A stretch of 54,748 nt of DNA from a virus (lineage: Duplodnaviria; Heunggongvirae; Uroviricota; Caudoviricetes), in the IMG/VR virus record IMGVR_UViG_2909303794_000001; one strand, written 5' to 3'. This document shows, one piece after another, positions 24,001 to 27,000 of this stretch (its first letter is position 1; each line of letters starts with the position of its first letter). Made by a program: the position numbers.

Positions 24001-27000
24001 CTCAAAGCGATGCATGGTATTCAGATCCCCCGGACTTTACCTGAGGCGTTGCGATTTGCGGCAAAACTGGCTGAACAGAAAGCAGTGCTGGAAAATCAAC
24101 TGGCAATAGCAGCGCCGAAGGCTGAATTTGTTGATAACTATGTTGAAGCATCTGGTCTGATGGGATTCCGGGAAGTTGCTAAGTTACTCGGTATCAAAGA
24201 AACCGATTTCCGGCTGTTTTTGTTGGAGAACGGAATAATGTATCGCCTCGCTGGAAAAATGACGCCTTACTCGCATCACCTGGATGCGGGGCGGTTTAGC
24301 GTGAAAACGGGCGAGGCGGGCAATGGTCATGCTTTTACGCAGGTTAAATTCACCCCAAAAGGTGTTCAGTGGATTGCTGGTCTGCTTGCTGCATGGAGAG
24401 CTACCGCAGCATGAAGATGATAAAAACGGACTGGAAATTTTTGCTGGTCTGGCTGATTCCGTTTTTATGGGTGGTTGCCCGGTTAATTACTGCTATTAAG
24501 GGGTAAAGATGTCAGACAAACTCATAATGCTGGCGAAGGGCCTTTGTGTAATCGTCGGTATTTCATTTTCACTAATGCTGGTTGTTCTTTTTCTTTCCAT
24601 AACCTGGATGGCGTTGACTTCGGCAGGGCTGGTGGGGTGAGCATAAACCGAATGCTTTCCGCGTTTACCGTTATTCTGCTGGTGGTCTGTGGTGCGCTTA
24701 GTCTGGGGCTGAATCATTACCGCGATAACGTCATCACCTACAAAGCGCAGCGCGATAAAAAAGCCAGAGAGCTGGAGCTGGCAAACGCAACCATTACTGA
24801 TATGCAGGTGCGCCAGCGCGATGTTGCTGCGCTCGATGCAAAATACTCGAGGGAATTAGCCGATGCGAGAGCTGAAAATGAAACTCTGCGTGCTGATGTT
24901 GCCGCTGGTCGTAAGCGCCTGCGGATCAACGCCACCTGCTCCGGTACCGTGCGTGAAGCCACCGGCACCTCCGGCGTGGATAATGCAACCGGCCCCCGAC
25001 TGGCAGACACCGCTGAACGGGATTATTTCATCCTCAGAGAACGGTTGATGACAATGCAGAAGCAGCTGGAAGGGGCACAGGACTATATCCGCACTCAGTG
25101 CCTGAACTAAGTTTTGCTGATGCGCCGTATCGTCGCTGTATTCCCTCATTAACAGAGACCGCAGCCCGACAGGGAGACTCCTCTGCGCGAGTGTGCGGGG
25201 ATAATCAAAAACGATACACACCGGGGTTTACCGCGTTAACGGAGCGCGGCGTTGTCCCCTCATGGTCGCTGGTTCGGTGCGATGGTGGAAGAAACCGGAC
25301 GATGTGTTACCTCGCAAGACCTGTTATGTCATGTGTCTGATTTGTGATTTAAGTCGGATAATTGTCGTTGCCATTAAGCAGAGGATTGATGGCCGACAGG
25401 GTGGCATTGTTAGAATAAGACTTATTCTTATCTGTGCCGGGAATGAAAATGAAAAGAAATCTTCCGTTAATTATTTTGTTGTCTTCTCTGGTTATGGGCT
25501 GTACGCAACATAAAACAGATATGCCCCGACAGTTGGTTAAGGCATTACCACAATATCCGGCCTATGCAGCGGCAAATTATATAAAGGGACGGGTTGATGT
25601 GAAGTTTGATATTGGTGCTGATGGTACTGTCACCCGAATTGAGTTTATCCGTTCAGAGCCGCACCATCTGTTTGATGAGCAGGTTGTAAAGGCGATGGCA
25701 AAATGGCGATTTGAGAAGGACAGGCCGCGTAAAGGCGTGAAGAAAACGTTTATCTTTAGTCCTTCTGCACCCTGATTATTTCATCAGAAATTAATTATCA
25801 CTCTGTTGTTATTCTGTACATTCCGGCTGGGTAAGTCTTGTTCCGCCGGGTATGAAGATGAAATATTGTTGGAGGACAGTGGGTACCCGCTCCTGTAACC
25901 GAACGTTCATTTCTCGTTATTTGTCATGCTGGCCGGACGCAGATGCGTTGCATCTGTTGCCAGCCTTCTCCTGCAGGCTTCAATAACCCACGCTGAAAAG
26001 TTACCGGAACCTTTATGTTCAAGGGCGATATTGATCTGTTCAATCATGTGATTGGGGAAACGGATGTTGCGGGTTGTTGTTCTGCGGGGCCGGTTTTTCG
26101 ATGACATTTTCTTTCCTCTGGTGACAAGCTATATGGCGAGGATTTTACATGGCTGTGCTTCGTACGTTACCGGGCAGAATCAAAACTCTGAACACCCGGC
26201 GGGTGAATATTCTGAAGGGTGAACAGCGTCGTGTCAGTGGCAGTGCACGTGTTTCCCTCAAGCGTCATATCTGGCTCAGGGATGCCGGGCAGTGCTGTCT
26301 CTGTGGTCGTGTGGTTGACCTCTGTGACAGTGAACTCGATCACCGAATTGCACTTCAGTTCGGTGGTGGTAATGAGGAGACGAATCTCTGGACGCTCTGT
26401 ACCGAATGCCATCGACAAAAGTCTGCTCGTGAAGCGGCGGGTGGTATGCCGGACCCGACGCTGCCGGAGGTGTCCGGAGGTAGTGGCAGAGCGGACGACA
26501 TCATCGGACTGTAACCCGAGCGGGGGGGGTATCATCCGGCGTAAAAAACGATCGCTCCGGACACCGCCCCCCGTCTCATGCAGAGAAAAAATTCCTGTTT
26601 CAGGCCAGTTAACATGTTAACTGGCTGCCCGGGCATTTTTTCGGTTTTTATCTTTATTATTCAGTTTGTTGTGCGAAAAAAATGTTAACTGGCTTTTTCA
26701 GCAAATGTTAACCAGGCAGCAGTTAACATTTGCGGCATGAGACGCCGGGAAAAATGGGCTGAACCATACCCGGCTGAGTGCGTTATGGACCCGGGAGGAG
26801 GCTGTGCTGACAACGCAAAAACGAAAATTTGCGCTGGCGCTCATGTCCGGGAAAAACAAAACAGCGTCAGCCATTGCCGCCGGTTATTCGGCGAAGACCG
26901 CCAGGGTTAAAGGCTCGCAGCTGGCAAAAGATCCGGAGGTGCTCGCGTTTATAGCCCGTAAACAGTGCGAAACGGTGGAGGTGGATGAGGTTCCTGTTTA

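Follow-up and report, generated by a model that had tools for sequence, protein, structure and literature searches.

A prophage lipoprotein with a TonB C-terminal domain: family, predicted iron regulation and possible interference with TonB-dependent import

Llp of phage T5 and Cor of phages phi80, N15 and HK022 are small lipoproteins of the inner leaflet of the outer membrane; their target is a TonB-dependent transporter, on which they act from the periplasmic side, blocking uptake of phage, colicin M and ferrichrome; Llp binds the periplasmic face of FhuA, which is also occluded by TonB (bioRxiv 10.64898/2026.03.26.714494). TonB-dependent iron import is inhibited by an overexpressed periplasmic TonB domain, and a Ton-box pentapeptide lowers colicin killing and phi80 infection, as stated in passages of PMC9841981 that cite Howard (2001) and Tuckman and Osburne (1992), respectively. 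The Iss-like Bor protein of lambda and phage 21 is a prophage-expressed outer-membrane lipoprotein encoded between the lysis genes and cos/terminase. Here we describe a gene located in the same niche in a 54,748-nucleotide stretch of viral DNA (IMG/VR record IMGVR_UViG_2909303794_000001; hereafter the window), which was found to be a lambdoid prophage of enterohaemorrhagic/enteropathogenic (EHEC/EPEC)-type Escherichia coli. The gene encodes a predicted outer-membrane lipoprotein, below called the TonB_C lipoprotein, that in its mature form is a TonB C-terminal domain. We regard it as an exclusion-type phage outer-membrane lipoprotein built from a TonB domain, of unproven mechanism and sign, which probably interferes with or tunes TonB-powered import.

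Compared to the C-terminal domain of E. coli TonB (residues ~150-239; PDB 1u07, 2gsk, 2grx), the TonB_C lipoprotein has the same domain and fold with the same YP motif, core and beta3 edge strand. It differs from TonB in being anchored by lipid at the opposite (outer) membrane, as predicted, in lacking the last ~9 residues of TonB and in belonging to a separate clade. It resembles the artificial periplasmic TonB fragments (Howard, Herrmann, Stratilo and Braun 2001, J Bacteriol 183:5885, as cited in PMC9841981) in being a free periplasmic domain with no energy coupling, but while these are soluble, engineered and overexpressed pieces of TonB, it is a natural, diverged and lipid-anchored paralogue with its own regulation. 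Llp and Cor have another fold, are FhuA-specific and inactivate allosterically, whereas a TonB-domain decoy would be broad-spectrum at the shared Ton-box/TonB interface. Scans of PHROG, Pfam, PDB folds and BFVD, which included no specific query for models of Llp or Cor, gave no relationship to either protein.

A TonB C-terminal domain behind a lipoprotein signal

The original prediction had proposed a lipoprotein at 25443-25775 with the lipobox LVMGC and a mature part resembling the TonB C-terminal domain. The domain was borne out by profile searches, BLASTP and structure modelling. A hidden Markov model search for TonB_C, the check suggested there, gave matches above cutoff to Pfam PF03544 (56 bits, the cutoff being 24.6; E 5.5e-15) and to TIGR01352 (56.5 bits against 27.1). 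BLASTP against E. coli TonB aligned 78 residues without gaps to TonB residues 153-230, 31 of them identical (40%), and phmmer against PDB sequences matched only TonB C-terminal domains (best E 3e-16). An AlphaFold2 (AF2) model built from five homologues had a predicted local distance difference test score above 92 across the whole domain. Its best Foldseek matches were 1u07, 2gsk_B and 2grx_C, with a root-mean-square deviation (rmsd) of 1.1 Å and a template modelling (TM) score, relative to the target, of 0.88-0.91, and it superposes onto the TonB of the BtuB and FhuA complexes with an rmsd of 1.1 Å and a TM score of 0.91. The BFVD viral fold library gave no significant match for the TonB_C lipoprotein. 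The gene and its parts are as follows.

25439..25442, + strand: Shine-Dalgarno-like GGGA, 6 nt before the ATG at 25449 and directly abutting the ATG at 25443
25449..25775, + strand: coding sequence of the TonB_C lipoprotein, 108 aa and stop; an alternative ATG at 25443 adds Met-Lys
25449..25502, + strand: lipoprotein signal peptide with MKRN, a hydrophobic core and the lipobox L-V-M-G-C (25488-25502)
25524..25757, + strand: TonB C-terminal domain, aa 28-105 of the 110-aa reading frame (Pfam/TIGRFAM, BLASTP, AF2 and Foldseek)

On the + strand an open reading frame (ORF) spans 25434/25443 to 25775, and the peptides quoted in the original prediction are part of its product. Thus the gene stood, but its start was moved: translation from 25449 is likelier than from 25443 because of the spacing of the GGGA element and because all homologues start with MKR or MKK at the Met of 25449. 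The Prokaryotic Genome Annotation Pipeline (PGAP) places the start of the 'TonB family protein' WP_000828070.1, encoded by identical DNA in E. coli 14EC001, at the same second ATG. The likelier product is accordingly the 108-aa form; residue numbers given here follow the 110-aa version starting at 25443.

In the domain, the YP motif (Y38-P39) is followed by a helix (40-44), two strands (49-57 and 63-72), a second helix (78-86) and a third strand (96-105). The hydrophobic core is retained (F55, F77, W88, F90 and F105), as is the beta3 edge strand formed by residues 96-105. It is through beta3 that TonB pairs with Ton boxes.

The signal peptide has the layout MKRN-LPLIILLSSLVMG-C, in which Met at position -2 is atypical and still within the relaxed lipobox pattern. 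The residue predicted to be acylated is Cys20 (nt 25500-25502). It is kept in 13 of the 15 sequences of a wide family alignment, whereas P0124 and P0146, the remaining two, have an ordinary signal peptide. The proposed lipobox was thus found, and among relatives it occurs in the contexts L[AS][VG][GA]C, LLGC and LSAC. According to the Lol sorting rule it is the residue at +2 that decides the destination of a lipoprotein, and lipoproteins without Asp at this position go to the outer membrane. Since the +2 residue is Thr and not Asp, the TonB_C lipoprotein is predicted to be at the outer membrane; the relatives have Thr, Ser or Ala at +2, never Asp.

The N-terminus consists of the 19-residue signal peptide ending in the lipobox, and it lacks the membrane anchor through which TonB couples to ExbB/ExbD. 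The proline-rich spacer that spans the periplasm is also missing, leaving only a 7-residue stretch to connect Cys20 with the domain. The NCBIfam equivalogs for full-length TonB (PRK10819) scored 49-73 bits against cutoffs of 265-448 and were matched at profile positions ~152-240 only. Without the membrane anchor and the proline-rich rod the TonB_C lipoprotein cannot transduce energy.

The retained aromatic residues bear on one way in which such a domain could act. Instead of binding Ton boxes, the TonB_C lipoprotein might form a heterodimer with host TonB through the latter's C-terminal domain and so trap TonB at the outer membrane. All import that depends on TonB would then stop, and the number of molecules required would be far lower than for a Ton-box decoy. 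The aromatic residues of the contact between TonB C-terminal domains are kept (TonB F180, F202, W213, Y215 and F230 correspond to F55, F77, W88, F90 and F105), and TonB is present in few molecules per cell according to a passage in PMC9841981. However, these five residues are also plainly the hydrophobic core of the fold, and the Fur-induced chromosomal copies described below pose the same paradox as they do for a decoy. We consider sequestration of TonB improbable.

A lipoprotein family in phages and chromosomes

An exhaustive profile-free search recovered many proteins of 105-135 aa in which a lipobox is combined with a single TonB_C domain. In a neighbour-joining tree and by sequence identity, these lipoproteins group apart from the C-termini of enterobacterial TonBs. 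For the window protein, identity is 39% to E. coli TonB and 44-52% to other lipoproteins, compared to 62-87% among the TonBs. The lipoproteins carry the signatures YPxYAxAN and SEPxHLFD, where TonB has YPARAQAL and AKPANMFE. As judged from these sequences, the family is a separate lipoprotein clade, distinct from true TonBs.

Of 5426 complete E. coli genomes, 1615 (30%) carry the gene. In 414 of these it was the allele of the window (at least 90% nucleotide identity), and in the remaining 1201 it was a ~73% allele, which is that of phage 21, in whose genome it follows bor and precedes cos. It was also found in Stx1a-converting phages and in Klebsiella phage ST13-OXA48phi12.4. Two scans of viral contigs gave 215 and 64 matching loci; the first recovered near-identical E. 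coli copies only, and the second was seeded with divergent members. The ratio of nonsynonymous to synonymous substitution rates (dN/dS) was 0.11-0.18 among phage-borne alleles and 0.12 in comparison with the phage 21 allele, values of 0.11-0.18 indicating that the gene is under purifying selection.

Some annotations ('Partial tonB-like membrane protein', 'TonB fragment') would have the gene be a decaying piece of tonB, acquired by a phage from its host and without function. This is extremely improbable, given the dN/dS values, its own signal peptide and lipobox, which are kept across genera, clustering apart from enterobacterial TonBs and presence in nearly a third of E. coli genomes. The pseudogene reading is essentially refuted by the selection and phylogenetic data.

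Chromosomal, non-phage copies were found in Klebsiella, Raoultella, Serratia grimesii and Erwinia typographi. The Serratia copy lies between ycgN and dsbB-nhaB-fadR, and in three Klebsiella/Raoultella species the copy adjoins the same genes for a LacI-type regulator, a glycine-zipper lipoprotein and a DUF1440 protein. A gene for a DUF1440 membrane protein is near the TonB_C gene both in Klebsiella phage ST13-OXA48phi12.4 (1277-1903 of locus L015) and in two of the chromosomes (6744-7312 of L002 and L003), which hints at phage capture of a chromosomal segment.

The TonB domain call is already known from public annotation. Specific names of cluster members are 'TonB family protein', 'Protein TonB' and 'energy transducer TonB', with few cases of 'hypothetical protein', and no gene name occurs among them. 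The distinct lipoprotein clade, the Fur boxes in most members and the conserved post-lysis slot of the phage copies appear to be unreported in the literature searched.

Fur boxes and the decoy reading

The tonB gene and the genes for TonB-dependent transporters are Fur-regulated, and in the late region of lambdoid phages stx1 is an iron/Fur-regulated gene. A Fur box matching at least 14 of 19 consensus positions was found within 120 nt upstream of the TonB_C gene in 15 of 21 non-redundant loci, compared to 0.56% of background windows, and a box of at least 15/19 in 10 of 21 compared to 0.17%, the background being 120-nt windows of the same loci. The scores were 17/19 for the Sodalis prophage and Serratia, 16/19 for Erwinia and Klebsiella R390, 15/19 for Raoultella and Klebsiella I138, and 14-16/19 for several viral alleles. 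The loci with a 14-17/19 box include L002, L003, L007, L008, L010, L011, L012, L098, L104, L105, L108, L107 and L149. The boxes are located 28-66 nt upstream of the ATG in phage-borne and chromosomal relatives alike. The excess over background makes it very probable that the family is repressed by iron through Fur, and the boxes tie it to the iron/TonB regulon.

In the window a perfect 8-1-8 palindrome, AGAATAAG-a-CTTATTCT, is found at 25412-25428 just before the gene, and it is the sole short-range perfect inverted repeat within 25100-25900. A 13/19 Fur match overlaps it, positioned where the relatives have their 14-17/19 boxes; matches of at least 13/19 occur at only 18 positions in the whole window.

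25408..25416, + strand: putative extended -10 element TGtTAGAAT, ~33 nt before the ATG, as it may be read from the sequence
25412..25432, no strand assigned: palindrome and overlapping Fur box match (13/19 against the Fur consensus at 25414-25432)

The putative extended -10 element is overlapped by the palindrome, and an element of the TGnTAG(A/T)AT type also precedes the Fur box in relatives. A consensus scan gave neither a + strand sigma-70 promoter (-35/-10) nor a terminator around the TonB_C gene, and Rfam gave no match in 24900-26800. Transcriptional read-through from the late operon is conceivable because no terminator is predicted between Rz and the TonB_C gene. The E. coli alleles may therefore be expressed constitutively from the retained -10 element, or mainly by late-operon read-through.

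We favour the reading that the TonB_C lipoprotein is a non-productive occupant of the Ton-box/TonB interface, i.e., a dominant-negative TonB decoy that lowers TonB-dependent entry, and we give it a probability of roughly 0.4. Held at the outer membrane by a tether of ~7 residues, the TonB-like domain would dock on the periplasmic face of TonB-dependent transporters, and its beta3 edge strand would pair with their Ton boxes or with those of incoming colicins. Lacking a link to ExbB/ExbD it could not pull the plug and would be a competitive, non-productive occupant. The expected effect is less TonB-dependent entry of T1- and phi80-like phages, group B colicins and siderophore-microcins. Group B colicins have their own Ton boxes, through which the decoy could also capture them. 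Expression would come from the gene's own promoter, which in most relatives would be repressed by iron and in the E. coli alleles may be weakened, and late-operon read-through would add to it in lytic growth. The decoy is the simplest reading of a receptor-binding domain without energy input, with a short outer-membrane tether and, in most relatives, co-regulation with the transporters. By analogy with the exclusion lipoproteins and TonB fragments, such a mechanism is plausible.

Several points weigh against the decoy. The main reservation concerns the Fur-controlled chromosomal copies in Klebsiella, Raoultella, Serratia and Erwinia, since an inhibitor of iron uptake that is induced by starvation would be paradoxical as a host gene. 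A stoichiometric decoy must also compete over very many transporter molecules. The equivalents of TonB R158, Q160 and R166, residues implicated in transporter contacts, are K33, L35 and Y41; these are unconserved with respect to TonB, and Y41 is nearly invariant in the lipoprotein family, so that the contact surface is unlike that of TonB. As to regulation, the 13/19 match of the window, a putative Fur site, is at a level reached by 2.5% of background windows, and the phage 21 allele, the commoner one in E. coli, is without a Fur box, its second half-site being lost. PADLOC-DB contained no known defence family matching at E<=1, and in the full-text literature searched no paper or experiment on the function of the TonB_C lipoprotein was found.

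The chromosomal copies could be explained differently if the protein helps TonB. An outer-membrane TonB-like domain might pre-engage or organize transporters, or it might pair with TonB's own C-terminal domain and so hold TonB at the outer membrane, giving better use of scarce TonB in iron-starved cells; the prophage gene would then be a fitness factor for lysogens in iron-poor hosts. Fur boxes in most relatives, vertically inherited chromosomal copies included, and conserved non-phage neighbourhoods make up the pattern of an iron-acquisition helper, and the Fur-induced chromosomal copies fit a modulator or helper at least as well as a pure inhibitor. TonB C-terminal domains dimerize: 1u07 and 1ihr, which we take to be crystal dimers of this domain, were among the phmmer matches in PDB. 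However, such a helper has no known precedent, the plug cannot be opened by a domain without energy input, and the effect reported for a free periplasmic TonB domain in the relevant passage of PMC9841981 is inhibition. A positive or modulatory accessory, in either form, is therefore an unlikely alternative to the decoy, if one to be kept in view.

Genomic setting and significance

The gene is a phage-borne 'moron' located between the lysis cassette and the packaging genes. Its position after the lysis cassette agrees with the original prediction, the holin, endolysin, Rz and Rz1 genes all being confirmed by PHROGs. The flanking genes are the following.

22306..25110, + strand: upstream lysis cassette (PHROGs, PGAP names)
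22306-22512, + strand: holin (PHROGs, PGAP names)
22517-22861, + strand: YdfR-like gene (PHROGs, PGAP names)
22912-23445, + strand: endolysin (PHROGs, PGAP names)
23719-24414, + strand: Ant anti-repressor, inserted in the lysis cassette (phrog_63)
24652-25110, + strand: Rz (phrog_13 and phrog_3198, the Rz/Rz1 pair)
24863-25048, + strand: Rz1, embedded in Rz (same pair)
25907-26107, minus strand: YlcI/YnfO, downstream of the TonB_C gene
26149-26514: HNH endonuclease, downstream of the TonB_C gene
26804-27367: terminase small subunit, downstream of the TonB_C gene
27364-29025: terminase large subunit, downstream of the TonB_C gene

Directly before Rz, at 24509-24640 (+), a conserved ORF encodes a 43-aa hydrophobic protein of unknown function (phrog_4906; PGAP hypothetical WP_001280923.1).

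The TonB_C gene follows non-homologous sets of holin, endolysin and Rz genes in loci L097, L098 and L108, in the Sodalis prophage (L011), in Klebsiella phage ST13-OXA48phi12.4 and in phage 21, and terminase genes come after it in L097 and L011. It moves with the lysis module among phages whose tails are unrelated. In two loci (L158 and L159) it was found in another position, near a cI-like repressor gene. At 2546-3678 of L117 an insertion sequence (IS) with two transposase ORFs on the opposite strand lies between the endolysin gene and the TonB_C gene, and the gene and its upstream motif are intact.

A location beside Rz raises the question of a lysis function. PHROG labels the family match of the protein (phrog_1267, E 1.9e-42) a lysis gene and 'Rz-like spanin', and a lipoprotein gene next to Rz, on the strand of the late operon and with no terminator predicted in between, would suit an outer-membrane spanin or other lysis accessory. 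We nevertheless find this highly improbable and regard it as essentially refuted: the window already has a complete Rz/Rz1 pair, the TonB_C domain is globular, unlike the short proline-rich Rz1, and relatives reside in non-phage chromosomal loci with Fur boxes. The label was rejected on the grounds of the genuine upstream pair and the globular domain, and it is most simply explained by position and lipobox.

The slot is also that of bor in lambda and phage 21, which would be in line with an envelope or virulence lipoprotein that has no role at Ton boxes, the TonB_C fold serving as a generic binder of peptidoglycan, a host protein or an iron source. The gene would then be comparable to the Bor/Iss or Lom morons, genes of similar phage slots with expression in lysogens. 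The prophage carries further virulence cargo in the form of Lom/Ail, NleG and NleA-like genes, the residues of the TonB contact are unconserved, and other ligands are possible for C-terminal domains of the TonB family, a FusB C-terminal domain-ferredoxin complex (9hi3) being among the fold matches. Against this, the closest likeness is to enterobacterial TonB C-terminal domains, beta3 edge strand included; the protein has no sequence similarity to Bor, and phage 21 has the two genes side by side. We consider a function of this kind distinctly unlikely.

Other features of the prophage were observed. Two anti-repressor genes are in unusual places: the Ant-type gene at 23719-24414 (+) lies between endolysin and Rz, and a P22_AR-type gene at 41641-42687 (+) lies in a ~1.7-kb segment (41075-42761) of the tail-gene region that is absent from the otherwise near-identical prophage of 14EC001. 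The Lom/Ail gene is located after J. Downstream of the tail fibres, type III effector cargo was found at 50297-50944 (+) and 51642-53036 (-), comprising an NleG-family gene (Pfam PF06416) and an nleA-like ORF, the latter sharing 83-93% DNA identity with the nleA region of 14EC001. The ends of the window, 1-381 and 54368-54746, match the same 14EC001 IS3-family transposase segment in opposite orientations with 100 and 95.5% identity, indicating that the prophage region is bracketed by inverted IS copies.

Phages, colicins and microcins that are TonB-dependent, as well as siderophore-antibiotic conjugates, all rely on the step between energizer and receptor. If the decoy reading is true, the TonB_C lipoprotein would be the first natural inhibitor of this interface in TonB-dependent transport, and it is encoded in prophages of roughly a third of complete E. 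coli genomes, EHEC/Stx1 phage backbones included. More tentatively still, and on balance unlikely, it may be a natural 'anti-TonB' that is spread by phages, Fur-regulated in most relatives, and jams the shared Ton-box/TonB interface rather than one receptor alone. The lysogens, which make up about 30% of sequenced E. coli, would then have a broad tolerance of phages that are TonB-dependent, of group B colicins and of siderophore-microcins at the very time when the receptors are exposed by iron starvation, and the chromosomal relatives in Klebsiella, Serratia and Erwinia would be a host-encoded throttle on TonB-dependent import. The decoy reading, if true, would bear on the host range of phages used in therapy, on susceptibility to 'Trojan horse' siderophore drugs, on pharmacological targeting of TonB and on the ecology of colicins and microcins in an inflamed gut poor in iron. 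If the protein helps iron uptake instead, it would be a new fitness factor of prophages and a new part of a long-studied system. Under either sign, inhibition or help, the Fur boxes provide a regulatory handle on the family.

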